In this document: positions 1,944 to 14,395 of the stretch, one piece after another
Layout of the letters: every line of letters starts with the position of its first letter
Numbering within the stretch: position 1 is the stretch's first letter
DNA from: Deltaproteobacteria bacterium
Lineage (GTDB): Bacteria > Acidobacteriota > Thermoanaerobaculia > Multivoradales > JAHZIX01
Length of the DNA stretch: 64,000 bases
Assembly: GCA_022601195.1 (NCBI GenBank)
Contig: JAHZIX010000045.1
Coordinates: 628,884 to 692,883, forward strand
Reading direction: 5' to 3'
Notes under the pieces: generated by a model
The model's database searches: none
Told to the model about the DNA's origin: nothing
Seen by the model: only the letters and a program-made list of their open reading frames with translations
Translations under genes and position numbers: made by a program

Positions 1944-2840
1944 TCAGTCGAAGGCCTTCAAGATCTCCTCCGCCAGCCATCCACCGGACTCCTGAACGAA
2001 ATGACCCGACTCAGCGATCTCCAGGGGGGGCGGGCAGCCCTGAATGACCTTGCGCAGAGCTTGCATGACCGGAGGGCCCAGTACCGGGTCTTCCATGCCG
2101 ATGGCCATGAGGGTGGGGCCCGCCCACTGAGCCGACCACCACCTAGCTGCTCGCCGGGAAAGGGCGGCACCCGGTGCGTCCGGATGGTCCGGAACCAGGT
2201 CTGGAAACCGCCGCACTCCGGCTTTGTAGCGAATGTCCGGAAAGGGTGCATCGTAAGCGGCGAGCTCCCGAGCAGAAAGATCGGGGCAGGATCGTCCCAT
2301 GAGGCGTCCGATGGCCATGTCCGGGTTTTTGGCACTCCAGGCTCGCCAAGCCAAGAAGGCCGGCGGCAAGGCAGTTTCTCCGGTGGCGAGAGAGGTGTTC
2401 ATCACCACCAATCTGGAGTAGCGCTGGGCATCATCCATGGGGATCGTCAAGCCGAGGAGTCCTCCCCAATCCTGAGCCACCAAAGTGATGTTAGAGAGGC
2501 CCAGTCGCTCGACGAAGGTGATCAGCGAGGCACGGTGAAACTCGAAGGTGTAGACGCTTTCATCAGTGGGCTTATCGGAGCGTCCGAAGCCGAAGAAATC
2601 GGGAGCCACCACCCGATGTCCAGCGGCGGTAAAAACCGGCAGCATCTTGCGGTAGAGGTAGCTCCAGGTGGGTTGGCCGTGCAAACAGAGAAACACCGTC
2701 TCGGCATCTCTGGGCCCCTCGTCCAAGTAGTGCATTCGCAGCCCATCGAAACCCGGCAGGTCCTCCAGGTAGTGAGGTTCGAAAGGAAAATCCGGCAGGT
2801 CCGAAAAGAAATTCTCGGGGGTTCTCAAAATCTCATTCAC
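1944..2840 (-). CDS. haloalkane dehalogenase-like alpha/beta hydrolase
   Basis: N-terminal FPFEPHYLE...GLRMHYLDEGP, nucleophile elbow VAQDWGG, 298 aa. GTG start at 2838-2840 overlaps the stop of the upstream giant gene (GTGAATGA). Confidence 0.75.
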   Translation of the reverse strand: MNEILRTPENFFSDLPDFPFEPHYLEDLPGFDGLRMHYLDEGPRDAETVFLCLHGQPTWSYLYRKMLPVFTAAGHRVVAPDFFGFGRSDKPTDESVYTFEFHRASLITFVERLGLSNITLVAQDWGGLLGLTIPMDDAQRYSRLVVMNTSLATGETALPPAFLAWRAWSAKNPDMAIGRLMGRSCPDLSARELAAYDAPFPDIRYKAGVRRFPDLVPDHPDAPGAALSRRAARWWSAQWAGPTLMAIGMEDPVLGPPVMQALRKVIQGCPPPLEIAESGHFVQESGGWLAEEILKAFD

Positions 2841-5800
2841 GAGGAGTCCTTTCGTTGACTGCCGTGGCGGGAAGAGTGGTTCGGAGGTCGATCTTTCGGA
2901 GAGCGCCCACCAGGTCTCTGAGTTGGTCGAGATGTTTCAAGGTGCCATCTAGCTGGTCGCTGAGCAGGCGGTCCTTTTTGGCCTCCGAGCCCTGAACGCG
3001 GCGTCCGAGGCTCCTCACAGCAGGAATGAGTGCCTCTTCGATGGCTCCCACCAAGCGACCCATGAGGTCGTGAACTCCGGGGCCGAGGGTTTGGACGATC
3101 TCTCGGCCTCGAGGCGCCTCGGCGAGGGTGGCCAGTGTCTTGGAGAGGCTTTCCAAATAAGGGGAAAAATCCTGCGCCGGAGCGGCTGCCAGGTTCGTTG
3201 CCAGCCCTGTAGTCGCCGACGGGTCGACGGCGGGGACTCGGTTCTTGAGCTCCGCAGCTGCTCCGGAGAGGACCCGAACGACCTTCTCCATTCCCTTCGA
3301 CAGCGAAGCCAAATGGTGGTCGAGTTTCTGGAGGGCTTCCCCGCCAGCGAGCTCTTCCCCTGTTGAGGATTCTCGAGACAGGGCCAGGCTGGCTTGGATC
3401 TGTTCCAAGATCGGCGTTAAGGTCGCTGCCAGTTCCTCGGTACCCCTATCTTCTGCATCACTCTCTTCCGAACGAGCCGTCTCGCGGGTCGATTCTGCTA
3501 CCTCCTTCAGCTGGGAGCCGATCTCGCCCAAGCGGTCCGACATCAGGCCCAGCTGACCCACCACTCGTGTCGAAGGATCGTCTTCAGCTCCGCCCATGGA
3601 GAGCACGCGGGCAAAGCCCCGCTTGATCTCCGCCCACCGCGCTTGCTCCTCCGGGGTCAGGCGTCCGCGCAACTCCGCTAGCTTGAGGAGGTTGTGCTCC
3701 GCCCCCGTGGTCAGAGTTTGGGCTTCCCCCAAGTAGTGATTGTCGAGAAGGACCTCGAGCTCGTCGTCGTTCATCACCGGCACGATCTTCTCCGCCAACT
3801 TGTTCATGTTGCGGTAGCTGCCCTGGAGTTGAAAGGGAGGCTCGGTGCGAAAAGCCGGATCTTGAGCTGCAGAGAGAATGTACTGGCGATTGACTTCCAG
3901 AAGCACCTGCTGGACGGCTAGGAACTTCCTCAGGACGGCGAGAATCTCCCCCACTTCCGCCGCGGAGTATCCATGGGAAAGTTGATCCGCCTGTATCTGT
4001 TCTCCCTGGGCCATGCGCACCAGCAAGTAGGTATCCTGCGGATCCCGGGTTCCCAGGGGAGCCGTCACCGGGTTGGAGGTGAGAGCATTCTCTAGGTAGC
4101 TGAGGGCGAAAGTCTCCTCCTTGCCTTCCAGAATGTCACCCAGATTGTAGACATCCGCTCGGTTTGCCAACATGTCCGGGACCTGGAACTTATCTCCCGA
4201 TTCCGTGTAGGGGTTGCCGGCCATACAAACAGCGAAGCGCTTTCCCCTCAGGTCATAGGCCTTGGTTTGCCCTTGCCAGACTCCCTCCACCTTACGCTGA
4301 GCGTCGCACAGGGAGATGAACTTCTGTAGCAACTCCGGATGGGTATGCTGAATGTCATCCAAGTAGAGCAACACGTTGTTGCCCATCTCGAAAGAGAGAT
4401 TCATCTTCTCCACCTCGCGCCGGGCAGTCGCATTGGGAGCTTCCGCAGGGTCGAGGGAATGGACGCCGTGCCCAAGGGCCGGGCCGTTGATCTTCATGAA
4501 GACCAACCCCAGGCGATTGGCAACGTACTCCATCAAAGTTGTCTTGCCGTATCCCGGGGGAGAAATGAGCAGCAACAGGCCCATCTGATCGGTTCGCTTG
4601 TCGTCTCCAAGGGCACCCATCTGCTTGGCCAGGTTGTCCCCGACTAGTGGTAGGTAGACCTCGTTCAAAAGACGATTGCGAACGAAGGCGCTCATCACCC
4701 GAGGGCGGTACTCTTCGAGTCGCAATTGTCGGCGGTTCTCTTCCAGCGCTTGGTGTCGGCATTCCTGAAAACGCCGGAAGGCAGGAACTTGCGAGTGGCG
4801 GAAAGCCCCGAGGCGCGCCAGGAATTCATCGAGGCGAAGGGTCATCTTACGCTGAGAGATGCGCCCATGTTGGCCCAGGAGGCCCTCCACTTCGCCCTGT
4901 AGCAGGGCGCTCGAGGGTTCCCGAGACAGGAGGCCTTCGGTGAGAATCAGCGCCACCGCACCATCGACTTCCGCTGCTAGACCCAAGGGGACGTCCTTAG
5001 CCGCTGGCTTAGTCTCGTCGTTGGGACTCTTGGTGGAAGTGCCAGAAACTTGGTGCCTTTGATCCAAATAGGCTTCGATCCAGGCCTTGGCGAGGGAGTA
5101 GCGCTGGGGCAGGTGATCCACCAGCTCGCTCATATCCGCTTGAAACTCTCTCCAAGATCCGGTCTTTTCGAGGTGTACTTCGAAGCTTCGCCGCAGATCC
5201 TGGGCTCCTGCGCTGAGCACGAAAGTAGAGGATTCCTGGCAAATCTCTTCGAAGAGATATTGCCCTGCGGAGCGCTGGTCTTCAGGGTCCAAATGGAAAC
5301 CCAGCTGCTCGGAAAAAGTGCCGATGGCCGTGGCGAGCTCGGAACAGAAACGGACGATCTCCGGACTGTGGGCGAAGGCTCGACGGAGGCGCGCCAGGCT
5401 TTGAGCCCTTCGTTGCCAACGCTTTTTGGCCAGCTCATCTTTGAAACAGGCCCAAAACAGAACCGCGGCAGCTCTCGGTTTCGGCGCAAAGCGGAGAAGC
5501 CCGGCGGTAGCGTAGAGACCGAGGAGCTTGGATAGGATAAGGGTCGCGTCCGCATCGTGGAGGCCTCTTTCATAGCCTTCGTCATAGCGCTCCGCGGAGA
5601 ACCTTCGGACTCGTTCCAAAAGGCTCTCCTGGGACAATGCTGCCTGTTGCAGAACCTGCGGAGACAGCCCTTCGGACTCTTCTTCAGCTGCCGCCAGGAG
5701 GCAAGCCGCCAAATACTCTCCTCGGTAGACCTGGGGGTTCTCAGAGACCAGGTGCTGATCCCACAGTGGCCGCAACTCTTCGAGCTGGGAGTCTTCCAGA

Positions 5801-8550
5801 GGTTGATGGAAGTCCGTGCCCGTGAGGTGAAGCTCTAGATGACCTTCACGGGGAATCAGGGTCAAGTCCAGGTTCTGGGTGTTGACGCTGAAACGATGAC
5901 GCCCCAATTTGAGAACATCTGTGCCCTCTTCGAAGATGTCCTGGCGGTCCCGTAGGGAGCGAACCGCCTCCTGCCGGGCGCCTTTGAGGCGCGCATCTAC
6001 CTCGTCCGCTCGCACGCTGTCGCCCAATTCCCGAAGCCGGGAGGAGAGGTCTCGCAATCGGCTCACCATAGCGTCCGCAGCGAAGTAGCTGTTGAGCTCG
6101 TCACCTTCCGAAAGCGTCGCCGCTCGCCGGGCGATGCCTCCGAGAATGCGCTCCGCTGCTTGCATCAAATGGTTGGCTCGGCGTTGACGTTCGTCCAGCA
6201 GGCGTTGCTTCTTGGCGCTGAAAGCCTCGTAGACGTCTTCCCGCTTGGCTCCCAGCTGCTCCAGGTATTCCTCGAACTCACTGAAGCGACTCTCTAACTC
6301 CTCCAACTGCAGCATGAGCTTCGAAAGTTGCTCGTCACAGGCTTCCGGGGTGTCGCCGAGACTCAGGGCGCCGGCAACGCTCTGGTTGAAGAGTTGAAAC
6401 TGGACCGCGAACTCGGCGACCATTTCATGGGAGAGGAGCTCTTTGCGTCGCGCTTCTTGGAGGGCTCGGCACCGGTTGAGGCCACCGAGAACTTCCGACA
6501 CCCCCTCTAGAATGCCGGTCCGCACGGTGGCGTCGTCGATATCGAGGCCACTTACCACTTCTGCCAGCAGGTCAAACCCGGAGCTAAGGCTGTCGATGGA
6601 TTCTCGAAGCGGTCGGGCCTCGCTGACCTTCTGAACCACCTCTATCTCTTGCTCTAGCTCTTTGAGTCGCCGGTGAAAGGGAGCAAAGGCGTCCTTCTCG
6701 ACCAGGAAAGAAACCGTCGCCTGGCTGACTTGGTCGAACCGATCCGAGACCTGCTCCTCTAGGGAATCGAGGCGCGACGGGTCGGCGTAGCGCAACTCTC
6801 GCAGTGAAATTAGCCTCCCTCTCTGCTGGCGCAACTGGCTCAGGCCTTCCACAAAGGGTTCGATGGCACTCCAATCTTTGGGGCGCATCTGGCCCAATAG
6901 GGTCTCCACCTCGACAGCTGCCTGGTCCACCGCTTCCGTGGCCTGACTGCGGATGGCTTCGACCTTCTCGAATTCATCGACGATCAACTCGGCGGTGGTA
7001 CGTACCTCCTTGAGCTGGTCCAGAGGCTGGCCCACCTCCGGGCTACCGAGCCAGAAGTAGCTGTCGATGACTCGGTTGGCGGAGGCGATGAGATCTTCGT
7101 AGACGAGGCGACTCGCCTGCTGCTCTTCCACCATGCGGCACAGGCTCAGGAGGTCCGAGATTCCCCGAACCAGATCGGCGTTGCCAACCTTCTCTAGATA
7201 GGAACCGGAAGAGGGAGCTGCCGCAGCGTGCTCGGCGCTGGAAAAGGGAGTCTGCCAAACCTGCATGGGGTGGACTCGGGTCGGCTCCTCCGAGAGACAG
7301 CGAAAAATGACCATCTTGCCGTCGTCGAAGAAAGTGAACCCATGGCATTCAACGGGGTTTGACACCTCTTTGCGGATCACGTTGTAGGGCAGCATGACGG
7401 TCCGTCCCTGCTCCCGGTGGTGAAAGAGGTACAACACATCTTCCCCATTGGGGGAGCGCAGGGCGTGTTTGAACTCCAGCTGCGCCACTTTCGCGTCGAA
7501 GGTTCGAGTCTCGCCGCTCTGAAGGTAAAAGCCTCCGGGAAAAATGATGCCGTGGTCCTCCGGCAGCTGCACACAGGCCTGACCGATGGCATCGATGCGC
7601 TGAACCTGCTTGGTGCGGGTATTAAAGACCAGATAGCGCCAGGTTTCCTCCCGGTAGGGCTTCACCTTGAGGAGGATTAGAACCCCCACCTGGGCGTAGT
7701 GAATCTCTGCATCGTCGAGACTCTGGTCGGCATCGTCCACCGGTTCCCGGTAGATTCCCAAACCGTCTTCTGTGTTGTTCTCGATCTTGATGGTGAGATC
7801 GCCGCCTACGGTCTCTACAAAAACCTCATCGAGAATCGTCACGTGGGGGTGCCGGCCGGACACAAAGTGATCCCGGGTGGTTGGAGTCCATTCGAAGTCG
7901 TGAGAAGGTGGGAACTGGTGATCCCGCTCTCCCCGATTGTCGATGTAAGTGATTCGACCGTCCGGTGCAATGGCCCAGCGAAAGACCTTGATGTCACCGA
8001 GGGTCGAACCAGCCTGAAAGACCGCTAGCAAACGATCCTCGACCCGGCGCAGCTGGAGCAACCGAGCCGACTTGTAGTACTGGTAGAGTTCCTCGAATTC
8101 CCGCAGGAAGGTCGGGTCGGCAAGAAAATCGGGTTGAGCGCCATCCTTCAGAGGGGTGAGAGAAAAGCCTTCCTGGGTCGCTTCGAAGGTGTGCAGGCTG
8201 AAGACGTCCCTGACCGTGGTCTGGTGGCGAAGACCTATGAAGACGTTGTAGCCAAACAGCAGCCGATCGCCCACCGCGGCGATGTCTCGGGGCACACAAT
8301 TGTTCTGCGTGCGGATCCGTTCCGAACCGACCACGGACATCTCGGTGCTGCCAAACAGCTCCAAGCGCTCTGTGTTGAGGCGATTCGCCGCAGTCTTGAG
8401 GTTTCCCGCTTGCTCCAGCAGCCGATCGCGGACAACTTCATAGGTGCCCTGCTCCAGGGTCGAGGTTTCGCTCATAGGCTCCCCCATCGCCCGCCGGGCT
8501 CCAAGAAGTTTTTCGGCCAGGAAGTACCTCTCCTCCCGAACCCGGGCCAT
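2833..8550 (-). CDS. giant (1905 aa) protein with a single MoxR/AAA_5-type AAA+ ATPase module; function unknown
   Basis: Walker A LISPPGYGKTT (+ strand ~4541-4570), Walker B VLLYLDDIQH (~4345-4380), AAA_5-like AGNPYTESGDKFQVPDMLANRADVY (~4150-4230). Beta-rich N-terminal region, ~800 aa predicted coiled coil (E/L/R/Q-rich heptads), alpha-helical C-terminus. GGGGGAG SD before ATG 8550. Confidence 0.6.
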   Translation of the reverse strand: MARVREERYFLAEKLLGARRAMGEPMSETSTLEQGTYEVVRDRLLEQAGNLKTAANRLNTERLELFGSTEMSVVGSERIRTQNNCVPRDIAAVGDRLLFGYNVFIGLRHQTTVRDVFSLHTFEATQEGFSLTPLKDGAQPDFLADPTFLREFEELYQYYKSARLLQLRRVEDRLLAVFQAGSTLGDIKVFRWAIAPDGRITYIDNRGERDHQFPPSHDFEWTPTTRDHFVSGRHPHVTILDEVFVETVGGDLTIKIENNTEDGLGIYREPVDDADQSLDDAEIHYAQVGVLILLKVKPYREETWRYLVFNTRTKQVQRIDAIGQACVQLPEDHGIIFPGGFYLQSGETRTFDAKVAQLEFKHALRSPNGEDVLYLFHHREQGRTVMLPYNVIRKEVSNPVECHGFTFFDDGKMVIFRCLSEEPTRVHPMQVWQTPFSSAEHAAAAPSSGSYLEKVGNADLVRGISDLLSLCRMVEEQQASRLVYEDLIASANRVIDSYFWLGSPEVGQPLDQLKEVRTTAELIVDEFEKVEAIRSQATEAVDQAAVEVETLLGQMRPKDWSAIEPFVEGLSQLRQQRGRLISLRELRYADPSRLDSLEEQVSDRFDQVSQATVSFLVEKDAFAPFHRRLKELEQEIEVVQKVSEARPLRESIDSLSSGFDLLAEVVSGLDIDDATVRTGILEGVSEVLGGLNRCRALQEARRKELLSHEMVAEFAVQFQLFNQSVAGALSLGDTPEACDEQLSKLMLQLEELESRFSEFEEYLEQLGAKREDVYEAFSAKKQRLLDERQRRANHLMQAAERILGGIARRAATLSEGDELNSYFAADAMVSRLRDLSSRLRELGDSVRADEVDARLKGARQEAVRSLRDRQDIFEEGTDVLKLGRHRFSVNTQNLDLTLIPREGHLELHLTGTDFHQPLEDSQLEELRPLWDQHLVSENPQVYRGEYLAACLLAAAEEESEGLSPQVLQQAALSQESLLERVRRFSAERYDEGYERGLHDADATLILSKLLGLYATAGLLRFAPKPRAAAVLFWACFKDELAKKRWQRRAQSLARLRRAFAHSPEIVRFCSELATAIGTFSEQLGFHLDPEDQRSAGQYLFEEICQESSTFVLSAGAQDLRRSFEVHLEKTGSWREFQADMSELVDHLPQRYSLAKAWIEAYLDQRHQVSGTSTKSPNDETKPAAKDVPLGLAAEVDGAVALILTEGLLSREPSSALLQGEVEGLLGQHGRISQRKMTLRLDEFLARLGAFRHSQVPAFRRFQECRHQALEENRRQLRLEEYRPRVMSAFVRNRLLNEVYLPLVGDNLAKQMGALGDDKRTDQMGLLLLISPPGYGKTTLMEYVANRLGLVFMKINGPALGHGVHSLDPAEAPNATARREVEKMNLSFEMGNNVLLYLDDIQHTHPELLQKFISLCDAQRKVEGVWQGQTKAYDLRGKRFAVCMAGNPYTESGDKFQVPDMLANRADVYNLGDILEGKEETFALSYLENALTSNPVTAPLGTRDPQDTYLLVRMAQGEQIQADQLSHGYSAAEVGEILAVLRKFLAVQQVLLEVNRQYILSAAQDPAFRTEPPFQLQGSYRNMNKLAEKIVPVMNDDELEVLLDNHYLGEAQTLTTGAEHNLLKLAELRGRLTPEEQARWAEIKRGFARVLSMGGAEDDPSTRVVGQLGLMSDRLGEIGSQLKEVAESTRETARSEESDAEDRGTEELAATLTPILEQIQASLALSRESSTGEELAGGEALQKLDHHLASLSKGMEKVVRVLSGAAAELKNRVPAVDPSATTGLATNLAAAPAQDFSPYLESLSKTLATLAEAPRGREIVQTLGPGVHDLMGRLVGAIEEALIPAVRSLGRRVQGSEAKKDRLLSDQLDGTLKHLDQLRDLVGALRKIDLRTTLPATAVNERTPRE

Positions 8551-8609
8551 CCCAACCGGGCTCGGAAAGAGGTTCGGATTCCGGAAGAGCGGGATTTTCT
8601 AGAGAGGAA

Positions 8610-8669
8610 TGGGCGCCCCTCGGTTTCCTCGACAGCCTTCCGGTGATGGATCCAAACTGGGCGCCCCTC
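8610..8669. promoter_or_regulatory. two copies of the palindrome-containing motif TGGGCGCCCCTC (8610-8621 and 8658-8669) between flotillin and the giant ATPase gene
   Basis: Exact 12-nt direct repeat, 48 bp apart, each containing the perfect palindrome GGGCGCCC. Lies in the 145-bp spacer upstream of the giant gene start. Confidence 0.25.
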
Positions 8670-8695
8670 TTGCTTGTTTAGCGACCCCGCCCCCA

Positions 8696-10741
8696 TCACG
8701 CCTTGAGATCCTCAATCCCCATTTCCCGGGCGACTTCCACGAGCCGGCTCAACTTAGCCTTGCCGTCACCTTCGAGGCCCGAGCCGAGACGTGCCAGGAG
8801 CCCGGCCAGGGTCAAGTCCTTGAGATCTCCGGAAGTCAAGGCCGGTCGGGAAAGAACCTCCTTGATATCTTCCGGGAGGCTGGCATCGCCTTCCAGGTAG
8901 TCCTTGAACAGATTCTGAGTCTGCTCACTGCGTCCCACAAAACCATCCACAGCCTTGCCCATGGAGATGGCGCCCACCAATTTGTCGAGGAAAGCGCCGT
9001 CGCCGCCGACGATATCGATGCGGGCGTTGCTCAAAGCCTCGGCGAGTACCTTGGCTTGAGCCTCGGCGACCTCTCGGCGAGCTTGGATACCTTCCAAACC
9101 GAGTACTCGTTCGTTCTCCAGCTGCAAGCGGTATTCCTCGTGACCTCGGCCTGCCTCGTCCAGAGCCTCCATGGCCGCGGCTTTTGCCGACAAGCCTTGG
9201 GCCTCGGCGCTGAGCCTCGCCTCGATCGCTTCCGCTTCCGCGGTTCCTTTTTGGCGAACCACGGCGGCTTCCGCGGTGCCGTATTTTTCGGTCGCCTCGG
9301 CGTCGACCTCTTTGATCCGCGCCTCGGCCAAGCCCACCTTCTCGATGGCGATGGCGTCCGCCTCTTTGACGGTGACCTGAGCCAACCCGGAAGCGGCTTC
9401 TTCCGCTTTGACGCCTTCCGCCAAACGAATTTTTGCCTGCGCCTCCTTGTCGGCGATCTCCAAGTCCGCCTGGGCCAAGGTCAGTTGTTCGCGGGCCTTA
9501 TGTTCCGCGGCAGCTTCCGCAGCTTCTGCAGCCTTGATGTCTTTGACCAATAGCTCCTGGGCCTCGCCTTCGGCCGTAATGACCGCGGCCTGCTTGGTGC
9601 GCTCAGCATCCTCGACCACTCGCAGTGTCTTGATGCTCTCCTCTTCTTCCGCCACGGTCTTGTCCACCACGACTCGTTCGCGGACCACCATGGCGATTTC
9701 CTTGCGTTCCACCTCGAGCTCTTTCTCCTTGGAGATACGAGACAGCTCCACTTCTCTCTCTCGGACGATGGCTTCCAGGGCCCGGTCTTTTTCCACCCGC
9801 TCCGCCTCTACGCTGACCACTCGCTCCCGGTTTTTCTGGGCAACTTCTACTTGTCGCAGCTTATTTTCCTCAGCGATGGCCAGCTCTTCATCGGTCCTGA
9901 TGCGAGCGGATTCGGAGCGCAGGCTTTCTTCCGCCTGGATCTTCAGAATCTCGGCCTGCTCTCGAGCCTTGACGGTTTCGATTTCCCGTTCTTGTTTGGC
10001 CTCGGCGTCCGCTTGCTGTCGCTCGAGCTCGAGGATCGCCTCCTGGGCTTCGACATCCTGTTTCTTGATCTTCTTGCGCTCATCGTTCTGAAACTCGTTG
10101 GTGCGAACGTGCTCCACGGCGGTCAGCTCGGTGATTTTGCGAATGCCCTGGGCGTCGAGGATATTGTCCGGATCCAGGGACGATAGGGGGGTTTGCTCCA
10201 GGTAGTCGATGGCGGCGTCTTCCAACACGTAGCCATTGAGGTCCCGGCCGATCACCCCGATGATCTGGTCGCGGAACTCTTCTCGCTTGGTGTAGAGGTC
10301 GACGAAATCTAACTGCTTACCGACGGTTTTCAAGGCCTCCGAAAACTTGGCGCTGAAGAGCTCTTCCAGAGTCTTCTGGTCCGAGGCCCGGGCACAGCCA
10401 ATGGCCTGAGCCACCTTGATGACGTCTTCGCGAGTCTTGTTGACCCGAACAAAGAAGGTCACCTTGATGTCTCCACGGATATTGTCCTGGCAGATCAATC
10501 CATCTTTTCCGCGTCGGTCGATCTCGATGGTCTTGACGGAAATGTCCATCGCTTCCGCTTTGTGGATCACCGGGATCACCAAGTCGCCGGTGAAAGTCAC
10601 CTTCGGCTCAGCCCCTAATTTATTGACAATGAGTGCTCTACCCTGCTCCACCTTGCGGTAGAGCCGGGCTACCAGCAAGCCCGCTCCGAGTAGAAAGAAA
10701 ATGAGGATGAGACCAACGACTACGGGAAAAATTAGATCCAT
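8696..10741 (-). CDS. flotillin (SPFH/band-7 domain protein, FloT/YqiK-like)
   Basis: N-terminal membrane hairpin (MDLIFPVVVGLILIFFLLGAGLLVA), an SPFH domain, then a long EA/EAE-repeat coiled coil typical of bacterial flotillins. AAGGAGGG SD upstream. Confidence 0.85.
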   Translation of the reverse strand: MDLIFPVVVGLILIFFLLGAGLLVARLYRKVEQGRALIVNKLGAEPKVTFTGDLVIPVIHKAEAMDISVKTIEIDRRGKDGLICQDNIRGDIKVTFFVRVNKTREDVIKVAQAIGCARASDQKTLEELFSAKFSEALKTVGKQLDFVDLYTKREEFRDQIIGVIGRDLNGYVLEDAAIDYLEQTPLSSLDPDNILDAQGIRKITELTAVEHVRTNEFQNDERKKIKKQDVEAQEAILELERQQADAEAKQEREIETVKAREQAEILKIQAEESLRSESARIRTDEELAIAEENKLRQVEVAQKNRERVVSVEAERVEKDRALEAIVREREVELSRISKEKELEVERKEIAMVVRERVVVDKTVAEEEESIKTLRVVEDAERTKQAAVITAEGEAQELLVKDIKAAEAAEAAAEHKAREQLTLAQADLEIADKEAQAKIRLAEGVKAEEAASGLAQVTVKEADAIAIEKVGLAEARIKEVDAEATEKYGTAEAAVVRQKGTAEAEAIEARLSAEAQGLSAKAAAMEALDEAGRGHEEYRLQLENERVLGLEGIQARREVAEAQAKVLAEALSNARIDIVGGDGAFLDKLVGAISMGKAVDGFVGRSEQTQNLFKDYLEGDASLPEDIKEVLSRPALTSGDLKDLTLAGLLARLGSGLEGDGKAKLSRLVEVAREMGIEDLKA

Positions 10742-10823
10742 CGCAACCCTCCTTGGTTCGTCGTGAAAAGTCGAAGACGCGAGCCGCCGTTCTCGGCAGC
10801 TTGCCCAGCCGGTCTATAGAGCC

Positions 10824-11519
10824 CTAAGTCAAAGCTTCGGCTACAGGGGTGACCAGGTACGTCTCTTTGTGGGCGTCGTACTTGAAAATCAGAGCTTTGG
10901 AGCCGCGGGTCAGAACGTTGGCTTCCAAACAACGAATGGGAACGAGCAGGCCGGCGCCGCCATCTTCGATCTCTGCCTGGCCGAACTCCAGGTCGACCCG
11001 CAAGGTGGTCACCGTACAGAGCTCGCCGACAAAGGCTTGGCGTTTGGGGGCTAGGTGAGAGACCAGCATTTTTCGAAGCGGGCGGGCACTCAAGGCGGCG
11101 GCACCGAGCCCCAATCCCAAAGCACCAGCTCCTACGAGGATCGCGGCCCAAGTCGCTTTCGACCCGCCCTCGATCGCGTCCATTCCGAGGTAGCTAGCCA
11201 TCCAGCCTACGAAGGTGAGAGTCGTTAGGGAGATCGTCAAAGGCACTCCCGAGAGGCCAAGAAGCTGTAGCAGGCCACCGGAAGTCGCCGAATTACCATC
11301 CGCTCCATCCCCACCCCCTTCACCGACGCCTTCCCCAATACCGTCCGCCGCTTCGAGAGCAGCTTCGGAACCTCCCTCCAGGAGGCCGTCCAGATCCAGT
11401 ATGTCGACGTCCAAGATTCCGGCAATGACAAACAGCCAATACACCAGCAGAACGCCTAAGGGAACAGTGAATAACACCGTCGGAAAGGCCAGGATTGCGT
11501 CTAGAAATTCGGTCATCAT
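10824..11519 (-). CDS. NfeD/YqiJ-like membrane protein (flotillin-associated, OB-fold C-terminus)
   Basis: N-terminus MMTEFLDAILAFPTVLFTVPLGVLLVYWLFV resembles YqiJ. It has multiple TM segments, a Gly/Asp-rich linker and a C-terminal beta-rich region. AAGGAA SD before ATGATG at 11519; the track ORF extends to 11552. Sits 82 nt upstream of flotillin, as in yqiJ-yqiK. Confidence 0.55.
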   Translation of the reverse strand: MMTEFLDAILAFPTVLFTVPLGVLLVYWLFVIAGILDVDILDLDGLLEGGSEAALEAADGIGEGVGEGGGDGADGNSATSGGLLQLLGLSGVPLTISLTTLTFVGWMASYLGMDAIEGGSKATWAAILVGAGALGLGLGAAALSARPLRKMLVSHLAPKRQAFVGELCTVTTLRVDLEFGQAEIEDGGAGLLVPIRCLEANVLTRGSKALIFKYDAHKETYLVTPVAEALT

Positions 11520-11928
11520 TTCCTTTTTTGTTCCAAATACAACGAGATACACCTAGCAGCATTATACCATCTCGAGATTCTTTTGCCGGGCGCGGCTGTT
11601 GTATTTGGTCCTGAATAGCAGGAAAGGGTTTAGTTTTTCTAGGAGTAGGTGGGGGAAGGGGGCGCTCTGGCTTGCGGCCAAAGGCTGGGAAAATTTGAGT
11701 CAAGGGGACCGTTGAACTGGCAGCTCGCCAGGCTGGCCGAAGTTCCTGTCTGACGTCGACAGAGCACATCGACCTCTTTAGCCCCGTGGACTCCTCCTCC
11801 AATCGAGTTCAGTGGGTAGGTCGACAAGCCGCATAGCTGGCTGACGGCTTGGCCATCCTCCCCTGACTCTTTTGGTGTCGGCTCGTCGATGGAAGAACGG
11901 ATAGAGCCAAATCTGGAGGTGAACTCGA

Positions 11929-12270
11929 TGGAACATCGCTATAACGCCGTCTTTGCACAGATAGGCGACCTTCGGATGGGCTTGCGGAAGAGGTTCCCGG
12001 TGCGAATAGGCAGGGCGAGAGCCTCGAAGAGGCCCGGGAAAACTTGAAGGAAGCGATTCAGCTGACCCTCGAGGCGAATCGAGACATTGCCCGCCGGCGC
12101 AGCGAAGGTCATACCGTCGTGCGCGAAGAGCTCCTGGTCTCGGTGGCAGGAAGTGTCGCCAGCTCCTCAAACATCTAAAGAAACACGGCTGTGAGCTGCT
12201 ACGAGAAGGTGGTCGCTTCGCACGTGCTCTCTTCGACTCACAAATAGGCCCAGCGTTTTCCGGAGAGTCA
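11929..12270 (+). pseudogene. degenerate hicB-hicA-like type II toxin-antitoxin remnant (frameshifted)
   Basis: Frame 1 from ATG 11929 reads MEHRYNAVFAQIGD. An overlapping frame reads DGLAEEVPGANRQGESLEEARENLKEAIQLTLEANRD (HicB/UPF0150-like). A third frame reads KCRQLLKHLKKHGCELLREGG, then the HicA catalytic GSHH is split between frames (GGRFARALF / ASHVLSSTHK*). At least two frameshifts and no start codon for the HicA part. Confidence 0.4.
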
Positions 12271-12328
12271 AGTCAGGCGAGGCAGAAAGGCGGCCCCCCG
12301 AAGGAGGGGCCGCCGGAAAGGTCGAGAC

Positions 12329-14395
12329 CTAGTGACTTTCGCGAATAGGGGGCGCGAGGAGGTCTTCGATGCCGATAGAGGGCTGGTTTTCCAGCCTCAC
12401 CGGTTCCAGCTCCTTGAAGGGGTCTTCCGGTAGTTTTCCGGTTTCTTCCAGGGCCGTAAGAACGTGGTGACGGTTGAAGGGGCGGAACTTGAAGCACTTC
12501 ATCTTGGCCACGGCCTTGATGTCAGCTTCACGGCGTTCCAGGTCGTCGAAATCCCGCAGTTTCGGTGCGCCGGCCCCGGTGTAGACCGGATCCGCGACGG
12601 TGATTCCGGTCAGGAAGCCGGAAAGGGCAGCCGGTAGCCCTGGGGTAGCCGGGTCGACATGGACGAATACCGTATCCGTCTCGCGAGCATGGCAACCGTT
12701 ACAGGCGGCGACTCCAACCTGGCTTCGCAGGTCCGAGTGGGCCATGTTGTTGGCCCCGTCTAGGGGAAGCGGCCCGTTCCAATGGAAGGGTGGTGGCGGG
12801 GCACCAGGAACCTTGGGATTGGCGGCTAGGAAGTTCAGGTTGTTGAAAATGAGCGGCACCGGCCGGGGGCCGAAGAGAACGTAGTTCGAGAAATCCACCG
12901 TGTTGTTGAAGCCCAGGTCCGGCGTGTCCGCAGCGGTGGTTTCATGAAGCGTATCCCAGGGGATTTGCATCAGACGGAACTCTCGTAGCTCCCATGGGAA
13001 CTCCTGGCCGATCTCGTTGGTGCGCAGCTGGCCGAGGGCGCTGCCATTGGGCCTGGTGGGGTTGGCGTTGCGACGCACGAAGGTATTGGTGAGTCGGTTG
13101 AGAGTCGCATTGTAGCTTGCCGAAGGGAAGGGCAGGTTGGCGAGGCGAACCCACGCTTTGGCCCAGTCCCGGACATCTTCGCACTCACATTTCGGAACCC
13201 GATACTCAAAGATCACCGAGAAGGCGAGGCCTCGGCAGCCACCACCCAGGTTGACGAGAGTTGGTTGGAAGAAAGGGCTGGCGTCGTAGCTCGGAGGCAG
13301 AACCACGCCGAATACGAAGCGGGCTTCACCAGCGTCGAGGAATTTACCGGTGCTGCTACCCAGGTAACCACCGCTGGTTCCCGTGGTGGAGCGCAGGTCG
13401 ACTCTGGAGACGATGGCCAGCAGCCGGAAGGGTGCGATGGAAAGGTCCAAGTCACCGCCGCCACTGGCAGCCCGCCAGTCAGCGATGAGAGAAGCCATGG
13501 CTGCTCGGGCAGGAACGTTGAAGCTATTGACGTTTTGGGCGGTGCCCCACTGCTTCAGCCACTCTTCGGTCATGAAACTGGGGTCGATACCGGTCGCCGG
13601 TTCGTTAGCCATTTCTCTCATCAGGTGACCAAACGTCCACTGCCCCATGGGGGCTCCGGTGCTAGTGCAGGGATCCCAGGTGCGAGCTGGATCCGTCACC
13701 ACACTGACATCGGTGATCATCAGGGAGCGGTCTTGGAAGATATTGGTGCCAGGAGTGAAGGCGTTGGCGACAACGGAGTCGAGGTGCTCACCTTGCTGGC
13801 CCTGGCCAGTTGCGGCGCTCAGGGGGTTGCCCGCCGCCGGAGCCGGCTCTTCGGTGGCCAGCAGGTTCGATGTGAGGGCTCGGCCAAAAGCGACCCGCTC
13901 TCCGGCGAGAAATTTGTTGGCATCGAAGGGAGTCGTCGCCTTGGTACCGACCCGGACCCGACCATCGAAAACCGGGGCCAGTTTGGCTCCTCGGTCGGAT
14001 TCACCGCGGTCATTCTCTCCACGCTCAATGAGCTCGGAGTCGTCAATAGAGATTCGGCCGGTGAAGACTCCATCCCCGTGGCGGTCATCATCCCCCTTGC
14101 CATCGTCGCGGAGCAGCAAGCTCTGGGAGTCGTCACCTACGATAAGAAAGGTCTTTTCACCGGTCACTTTGGCTAGAGCTGTGACCCCTTCATTGTCCAG
14201 AGTGACGAAGATCCGAGCGTTGCCCTGGCCTCCTTCATCGTCAGCTTTCTGAATCGAAACCGACTCCGGTGGTGGTACGAAGGTGGTGAGCTCCCTCGCC
14301 AAGCTCGGCATGGCCACCAAGCTGGTCAGGCTTAGGGCCAGAATCCACGGGATCCCTCTCTGTTTCTTAGGTTTTGCCACGTTTGTTCCCTCCAT
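12329..14395 (-). CDS. secreted hypothetical protein (688 aa) with a single CXXCH motif
   Basis: Signal-peptide-like N-terminus (ILALSLTSLVAMPSLA). No recognisable catalytic domain. C-terminal CNGCH (possible c-type heme site). Confidence 0.5.
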   Translation of the reverse strand: MEGTNVAKPKKQRGIPWILALSLTSLVAMPSLARELTTFVPPPESVSIQKADDEGGQGNARIFVTLDNEGVTALAKVTGEKTFLIVGDDSQSLLLRDDGKGDDDRHGDGVFTGRISIDDSELIERGENDRGESDRGAKLAPVFDGRVRVGTKATTPFDANKFLAGERVAFGRALTSNLLATEEPAPAAGNPLSAATGQGQQGEHLDSVVANAFTPGTNIFQDRSLMITDVSVVTDPARTWDPCTSTGAPMGQWTFGHLMREMANEPATGIDPSFMTEEWLKQWGTAQNVNSFNVPARAAMASLIADWRAASGGGDLDLSIAPFRLLAIVSRVDLRSTTGTSGGYLGSSTGKFLDAGEARFVFGVVLPPSYDASPFFQPTLVNLGGGCRGLAFSVIFEYRVPKCECEDVRDWAKAWVRLANLPFPSASYNATLNRLTNTFVRRNANPTRPNGSALGQLRTNEIGQEFPWELREFRLMQIPWDTLHETTAADTPDLGFNNTVDFSNYVLFGPRPVPLIFNNLNFLAANPKVPGAPPPPFHWNGPLPLDGANNMAHSDLRSQVGVAACNGCHARETDTVFVHVDPATPGLPAALSGFLTGITVADPVYTGAGAPKLRDFDDLERREADIKAVAKMKCFKFRPFNRHHVLTALEETGKLPEDPFKELEPVRLENQPSIGIEDLLAPPIRESH

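Follow-up and report, generated by a model that had tools for sequence, protein, structure and literature searches.

A probable remnant of a Class 2 hicBA toxin–antitoxin module with a toxin gene cut short after codon 23

The stretch of DNA analysed here (the window, 64,000 nt) contains a 776-nt gap between two minus-strand genes, and within this gap lie the decayed parts of two small plus-strand genes, an antitoxin gene (hicB) followed by a toxin gene (hicA). The original prediction, made from the letters of the window, had described a hicB-then-hicA toxin–antitoxin relic in which neither gene keeps an intact open reading frame, and this identification was upheld both by family HMMs and by a DNA profile. 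The peptides on which it was based were all found verbatim in the three plus-strand frames when 11860–12330 was translated. Its outer limits need to be moved: the relic had been given as 11929–12270, and we find that the ATG of hicB lies at 11928 and that recognisable hicA stops at 12216. The features of the locus are collected in Table 1.

Table 1. Features of the relic and its surroundings, with positions counted in the window
Feature	Position	Strand	Basis or remark
Gene for 242-aa membrane protein, divergent, first of the so-called flotillin operon	10824..11552	-	Conserved upstream of the 681-aa gene in relatives
TAGAGC, decayed counterpart of the -10-like TAnAAT hexamer	11902..11907	+	20 nt to the ATG, spacing as in intact loci
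Shine-Dalgarno GGAGGT of hicB, retained	11915..11920	+	7 nt before ATG 11928
hicB part 1, codons 1-18 (MEHRYNAVFAQIGDLRMG) and two bases of codon 19	11928..11983	+	HicB HMM positions 1-24
hicB part 2, codons 20-74 (AEEVPGANRQGESLEEARENLKEAIQLTLEANRDIARRRSEGHTVVREELLVSVA), -1 relative to part 1	11984..12148	+	HicB HMM, E = 5e-28
AGGA, formerly the ATGA overlap of hicB stop and hicA start	12148..12151	+	T-to-G at 12149, length unchanged
hicA relic, first 23 codons only (ATG start replaced by AGG; KCRQLLKHLKKHGCELLREGGR)	12148..12216	+	HicA HMM, E = 1.9e-8
Read-through tail of the hicB frame (GSVASSSNI) to TAA 12176-12178	12149..12178	+	Translation; nine extra codons
Junction, end of hicBA homology and start of homology to the relative's hicBA-free region	12215..12216	.	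nhmmer and blastn
Spacer, downstream region of the 688-aa gene, not hicA; contains ASHVLSSTHK and a stop	12217..12288	.	Conserved with L171/L172
GC-rich hairpin, 11-bp stem, probable terminator of the convergent 688-aa gene	12289..12314	-	Folding
Gene for 688-aa secreted protein, convergent, function unassigned	12329..14395	-	ORF; 100% to P0149, 88% to P0150

The 681-aa and 242-aa proteins of the ‘flotillin operon’ matched no Pfam family (E ≤ 1e-3) and nothing in NCBIfam or PADLOC (E ≤ 0.01), and the 688-aa protein matched no Pfam family and gave only a weak NCBIfam match to ‘choice-of-anchor X’ (16.8 bits against a cut-off of 25). The 688-aa protein has a CNGCH (CxxCH-like) motif and more than 700 homologs, mostly in genomes assembled from metagenomes (MAGs) that are labelled Thermoanaerobaculia. 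The protein identical to it, P0149, is labelled ‘Deltaproteobacteria bacterium’; the closest relatives of the neighbouring genes are Thermoanaerobaculia, and the ‘Deltaproteobacteria’ label of the MAG that carries P0149 looks doubtful. On the other side of the gap, a cluster of genes for the 242-, 681- and 1905-aa proteins (2833–11552, minus strand) is conserved in the closest relatives checked, which are MAGs of Thermoanaerobaculia, Planctomycetota, Polyangiaceae and Pseudomonadota. Taken by itself, the 681-aa protein has relatives of 44–70% identity across Planctomycetota, Bacteroidota and other phyla. In the 1905-aa protein, DUF3686 (‘ATPase involved in DNA repair’), DUF7902 and AAA domains were recognised. 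We also noted a perfect 11-nt inverted repeat, CCAAATACAAC / GTTGTATTTGG, at 11533–11543 and 11598–11608, the two arms being 54 nt apart. The repeat spans the beginning of the 242-aa gene and lies in the stretch of lowest GC content in the region (0.49), where it might act as an operator or as a 5′-UTR structure; by our own estimate, about 0.14 such 11-nt pairs would be expected by chance in 1.1 kb.

The relic resembles hicBA much more closely than chance would allow. A profile made from the DNA of five intact hicB–hicA loci matched 11902–12215 on the plus strand with E = 2.6e-75 and a single 1-nt gap (nhmmer), and no other match below E = 0.2 was seen in the 64 kb. For the proteins, family HMMs were built from homologs with the window sequence left out, and were run on the window translated in six frames and cut at its stops into 2405 pieces. 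The HicB HMM matched a frame-2 piece with E = 5e-28 (profile positions 18–73 of 74) and the frame-0 piece MEHRYNAVFAQIGDLRMG with E = 0.05 (positions 1–24), and the HicA HMM matched the frame-1 piece KCRQLLKHLKKHGCELLREGGR with E = 1.9e-8 (positions 2–24 of 61). These matches stand in the expected order and frames, and no second copy of hicB or hicA was significant among the six-frame pieces.

Family-specific profiles were needed because the generic collections gave sub-threshold matches or none. The relic scored 18.4 bits with HicB_lk_antitox and 18.9 bits with HicA_toxin, the cut-off being 27 for each, and the NCBIfam scan of its frame pieces found nothing. Weak matches to two cognate families side by side gave a lead and no more. 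For the small HicB type (PF15919 / PF21748 UPF0150), the generic Pfam scores of the HicB part were this 18.4 and 14.5–14.9 bits, all sub-threshold. The match to HicA_toxin (PF07927) was not only below the cut-off but covered no more than profile positions 2–23 of 58, and we take the hicA relic to be derived from this family without being a complete member of it. The HicA/HicB similarity that had been proposed is therefore significant with family-specific HMMs and sub-threshold with generic Pfam.

Searching with the joined HicB-like frames returned 28 proteins, nearly all of them 72–76 residues long, the best being 77% identical over 97% of the query. Complete hicB–hicA pairs were present in all five of the distinct family members that we examined. 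In four of these (L004, L165/L166, L167/L168 and L169/L170), a hicB gene of 73–74 codons is followed by a gene of 61–62 codons that matches Pfam HicA_toxin; in the fifth (L001/L002), hicA is uncalled but intact and scores 49.1 bits to the same model. The scores of intact HicA homologs were 42.6 and 49.1 bits against the cut-off of 27, and the HicB homolog P0002 reached 28.4 bits against the UPF0150 cut-off of 27.3. The HicA of L004 has 411 relatives. Two intact hicA genes of 61–62 codons are missing from the public gene tables, at 5222–5407 (plus strand) of L001 and at about 1415–1603 of L170, and the toxin genes of this family may be under-annotated.

Comparison with the intact loci allowed the lesions of the relic to be placed base by base. 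In hicB, codon 19 consists of two bases only (TT, 11982–11983) and Ala20 begins at 11984. The alignment shows that the pieces are to be joined as MEHRYNAVFAQIGDLRMG + (L)AEEVPGAN...; the protein so obtained has exactly the family length and, compared over 97% of its length, is 77% identical to P0001, an intact 74-aa homolog. The frameshift had originally been sought at 11968–11975; the DNA profile alignment puts it at 11983/11984. In the alignments, this 1-nt deletion in codon 19 is the sole true frameshift of the relic. It sits in a short T run, TT being found where homologs have TTT, TTC or TTTT, and a homopolymer sequencing error may lie behind it. With the assembly taken at face value, relic hicB has no intact reading frame, owing to this deletion and to the change of its stop codon from TGA to GGA.

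The repaired HicB sequence keeps all of the invariant columns of the family and departs from it at five columns with a conservation of 85% or more (E10A, W16R, L23V, T28R and T32S). The ten closest homologs deviate at zero to two such columns, and more distant intact homologs reach three to nine, so the excess of unusual substitutions is modest. Decay had been described as fairly recent. This fits hicB, which is disabled by one lesion and still 77% identical to an intact homolog; no date can be assigned to it, and synonymous sites are saturated at the ∼75% DNA identity that separates the relic from its nearest homolog.

Upstream of hicB, the retained Shine-Dalgarno sequence has its counterpart in the intact loci, where GGAGG occupies the same position. 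A second element has fared less well. In L001, L004, L165, L166 and L167 a TAGAAT or TACAAT hexamer stands at −26/−27 from the hicB start, and in the window the corresponding hexamer, TAGAGC, has lost the last two conserved bases of TAnAAT. The hexamer may be the −10 promoter element of the module itself; a consensus scan of 11400–12500 found no sigma-70-like promoter. TAGAAT/TACAAT keeps its fixed spacing to hicB across unrelated genomic contexts. This putative −10 hexamer bears on a question that is still open in the literature, namely how Class 2 hicBA modules are regulated when they have no DNA-binding domain (PMC10865869).

The presence of three frames does not imply two frameshifts. In the intact loci, hicB and hicA natively occupy different frames and overlap by four bases (ATGA) or, in L169, by one base, and the step from the frame of the HicB peptide to that of the HicA peptide is therefore native and not a lesion. 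Order and spacing in the window match those of the intact loci, with hicB codon 74 abutting hicA codon 1. What has changed is the overlap itself: the intact loci read ...ggATGAag... and the window reads ...gcAGGAag..., the T-to-G substitution at 12149 abolishing both the stop codon of hicB and the start codon of hicA. The tail that would result from read-through of the hicB frame is without counterpart in intact homologs, which end at residue 72–74.

The damage to hicA is of a different kind. Codons 2–23 (12151–12216) are well conserved except for a change of the invariant Arg3 to Cys. Homology then ends at codon 23, one codon before the invariant catalytic His24, the DNA profile alignment ending at 12215; codon 24 is TTC (Phe) in the window and His in 30 out of 30 aligned homologs. 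The last 38 codons, including His24, are absent. The relic hicA thus encodes residues 2–23, corresponding to helix 1 and strand 1 only, an incomplete HicA fold, and its frame contains no ATG, GTG or TTG start codon and no called ORF. Because the gene is truncated, neither RNase activity nor toxicity would be expected from it.

The toxin gene had been thought inactivated by indels, with a catalytic GSH(H) motif displaced into another frame. Neither part of this holds. The gene is truncated at the 12215/12216 junction and has lost its start through the substitution of ATG by AGG. The motif of the subfamily is G-x-x-H (GGRH, GKRH), and the frame-2 ‘SH’ is not above chance: when 12216–12330, which includes ASHVLSSTHK, was compared with the HicA HMM in three frames, no score exceeded −1.6 bits, a value equalled or bettered by 75% of 300 shuffles. 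An alignment with MAFFT had suggested that the 3′ part of hicA survives in another frame after a 4-nt insertion. This was rejected, the profile score being that of shuffled sequence, and survival of the 3′ part is also ruled out by the homology of this stretch to DNA without hicBA in a relative.

That relative was reached through the convergent gene. In protein searches, the 688-aa protein gave a 100% match to P0149 (K0U98_22750) and an 88% match to P0150. P0150 is encoded on two 2.6-kb contigs, L171 and L172 (GCA_020423325.1 JAIOUG010063248.1 and GCA_020423345.1 JAIOUI010055342.1), which extend 275 nt past the stop of the gene. Bases 162–330 of the reverse complement of L171 align with 12215–12383 of the window at 80% identity (blastn, E = 3e-37). 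Homology to hicBA thus gives way to homology to the relative at one and the same base. The 161 nt that the relative's contig holds past this point gave no match to the hicBA profile or to any part of the window.

Because the two homologies meet in this way, the toxin gene must have been truncated at a recombination or deletion junction. The sequence from 12217 to 12328 is the native downstream region of the 688-aa gene, and a single deletion or recombination event fused hicA to it. A hairpin in this region is conserved in L171/L172. The minus strand of 12262–12330 folds at −30.6 kcal/mol (z = −3.1), and none of 200 shuffles folded as well; the T-tract of the hairpin is weak (TTTCT), which is why it was not listed by a consensus terminator scan.

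No genome showing the full orthologous site was found, the contig of the sole close relative ending 161 nt past the junction. What it covers fits truncation in place of a complete cassette as well as insertion of an already truncated fragment. A search for the orthologous site through the 681-aa neighbour, in genome and metagenome contigs, gave nothing closer than 70% identity, and the loci at or below 70% share the 242/681/1905-aa cluster and not the region upstream of it. The suggestion that the relic marks a former boundary of mobile or accessory DNA is supported by the homology breakpoint at 12215/12216 and by the absence of upstream synteny in more distant Thermoanaerobaculia, and found no other support: scans of the region gave no tRNA, Rfam family, GC anomaly or PADLOC match, and no integrase was present among the neighbouring genes scanned. 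Inverted repeats at 11857–11870 and 12264–12277 were considered as the ends of an element and rejected, since such a pair is close to chance expectation in 1.1 kb. The relic marks a site of past acquisition or rearrangement, and 12215/12216 can be flagged as a rearrangement breakpoint between two related genomes.

Taken as a whole, the locus is very probably the remnant, now without function, of a type II toxin–antitoxin module of Class 2 hicBA whose toxin gene was cut after codon 23. The most serious competitor is that the frameshift in hicB is an error of sequencing or assembly, and that hicB still works as a solitary antitoxin gene next to the stump of a dead toxin gene. Such a gene would encode 83 aa, with a 9-residue tail arising from the lost stop, and might neutralise the HicA of incoming elements. 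It would have a single disabling lesion to explain away in 222 nt, and that within a short T run; its Shine-Dalgarno sequence and start codon are intact and the invariant HicB columns are all retained. The contig from which the window comes is 1.17 Mb long, which may mean long-read data. Solitary hicB genes have been reported (PMC10865869), and one occurs in a relative (L013, 2268–2453). Against this, about 92% of the window is in long open frames (of 1921, 1457 and 1045 codons, for example), which gives no sign of an indel-prone assembly; the changes E10A, W16R and T28R are non-conservative and fall at conserved positions; and hicB has lost its stop codon and has a damaged −10-like hexamer. 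We therefore regard a live solitary hicB as unlikely. A related proposal, in which hicB is still expressed, through an assembly-error frameshift or low-level ribosomal slippage, as a solitary antitoxin against phage or plasmid HicA, and in which the cassette arrived without its toxin after recombination inside hicA, is a distinctly long shot.

The solitary gene of the relative deserves a separate description. It is a 61-codon hicB-like ORF on the plus strand of L013, from a Thermoanaerobaculia MAG, and matches the family HMM with E = 1.1e-16. It lies ∼7 kb upstream of the conserved 242/681/1905-aa cluster, no hicA is detectable, and several otherwise invariant residues are changed (EARENLKEAI to EGRANLGEPI). 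Here, too, an antitoxin that no longer has its toxin may be in decay.

Two open frames run over the relic, one of 130 codons in antisense (11778–12170, minus strand) and one of 52 codons in sense (11889–12047, plus strand), the latter running from an upstream ATG through the frameshifted start of hicB. Either could be reported as a hypothetical protein by a gene caller, and both look spurious. If the antisense ORF were the real gene, the hicBA similarity would be incidental. The minus strand does have an open frame of 164 codons over the relic, but a chance origin has to be set against plus-strand hicBA homology with E = 2.6e-75, and the antisense product is rich in Arg and Pro and of low complexity, as is typical of the reverse strand of GC-rich coding DNA; we give this reading very little credence. 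That the pair is live and only looks broken through sequencing indels is close to inconceivable, given that 38 hicA codons, among them the one for the catalytic His, have given way to sequence that a relative also has, in a region free of hicBA, and that the start codon was lost by substitution and not by an indel, and for hicA it is already refuted unless the assembly is chimeric at 12215/12216.

For the remnant reading, a simple course of events can be proposed. The toxin gene was cut after codon 23 by deletion or recombination and joined to the downstream region of the 688-aa gene, a truncation that took away His24 and three-fifths of the HicA fold. The toxin was presumably disabled first, most simply through the truncating junction, because in a live module the antitoxin cannot be the first to go. 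Once there was no toxin to be neutralised, nothing would have kept the remaining cassette from decaying. Drift would then have changed the shared ATGA to AGGA, removed one base from codon 19 of hicB, altered several conserved HicB residues and deprived the −10-like hexamer of its two last conserved bases.

The hicBA relic is a decayed pseudogene pair of a known family, an ordinary genomic fossil, and most likely does nothing at present. The appropriate annotation is a hicB pseudogene with a hicA fragment, and not the 52-aa or antisense 130-aa ORFs. Beyond annotation its importance is small, and its interest lies mainly in its value as a marker of past rearrangement. If the proposed order is correct, it also offers a base-resolved view of the death of a toxin–antitoxin module, in which one truncating junction, a codon ahead of the catalytic residue, removes the toxin, and erosion of the antitoxin, of the shared start/stop and of the promoter follows.

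Structural models of intact homologs tie the family to solved toxins and antitoxins. The HicA toxin is a small protein that cleaves RNA; it resembles double-stranded-RNA-binding domains in its fold and has a catalytic histidine, and HicB neutralises it by covering the catalytic site with a partial RNase H fold (PMC11594946, PMC10865869). The AlphaFold2 model of the HicB homolog P0001, which is 77% identical to the relic, has a pLDDT of 94.6 and shows strands at 7–12, 15–20 and 27–30 followed by a helix at 33–59, i.e. the strand-strand-strand-helix arrangement of a partial RNase H fold. Its top 19 PDB matches are all HicB or UPF0150 proteins, the best being TTHA1756 and the HicB antitoxins of Burkholderia pseudomallei, E. 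coli and Y. pestis. The sequence profile agrees, matching solved HicB chains with E = 1e-3 to 1e-2. For the HicA homolog P0029, the model (pLDDT 92.4) has a helix at 3–12, strands at 16–20, 24–29 and 34–39 and a helix at 46–55. This helix-strand-strand-strand-helix fold superposes on 6g26_E with a TM score of 0.83, the highest among its seven best PDB matches, all of which are HicA-type (solved toxins and the uncharacterised T. thermophilus 1whz). His24 of the family aligns with His23 of E. coli HicA; this residue and its equivalents (His23/His24) in B. pseudomallei and S. meliloti are reported to be required for activity or toxicity (PMC11594946).

Among the known systems, the classical HicAB modules of E. 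coli K-12 and B. pseudomallei (6hpb, 6g26) resemble the family in the fold of the toxin model of P0029 (TM 0.72–0.83, rmsd 1.3–1.4 Å), and the model of the HicB homolog matches the N-terminal domain of the antitoxin 6hpb_B with an rmsd of 0.8 Å over 44 columns. Sequence identity to these systems is only 22–30%. In the classical modules hicA lies upstream of hicB, and HicB ends in a DNA-binding domain of the HTH or RHH kind, in contrast to the window on both counts. The UPF0150-like protein TTHA1756 of Thermus thermophilus (2yzt) is the best solved match both to the HicB family profile (E = 1.3e-4) and to the model; at 67 aa it is of similar size, it is 28% identical, and it is functionally uncharacterised. 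The family matches Class 2 hicBA (Gerdes 2024, mBio), which is defined by reversed gene order and by a small HicB of 63–103 codons without a DNA-binding domain (PMC10865869). The relic likewise has hicB before hicA, its HicB has 74 codons and consists of the strand-strand-strand-helix core only, with no HTH or RHH domain, and the HicA of its intact relatives has 61 codons, the HicA fold and the conserved His. Unlike a live Class 2 module, the window has a hicA that is truncated at codon 23 and lacks its start, beside a hicB that is frameshifted and has lost its stop.
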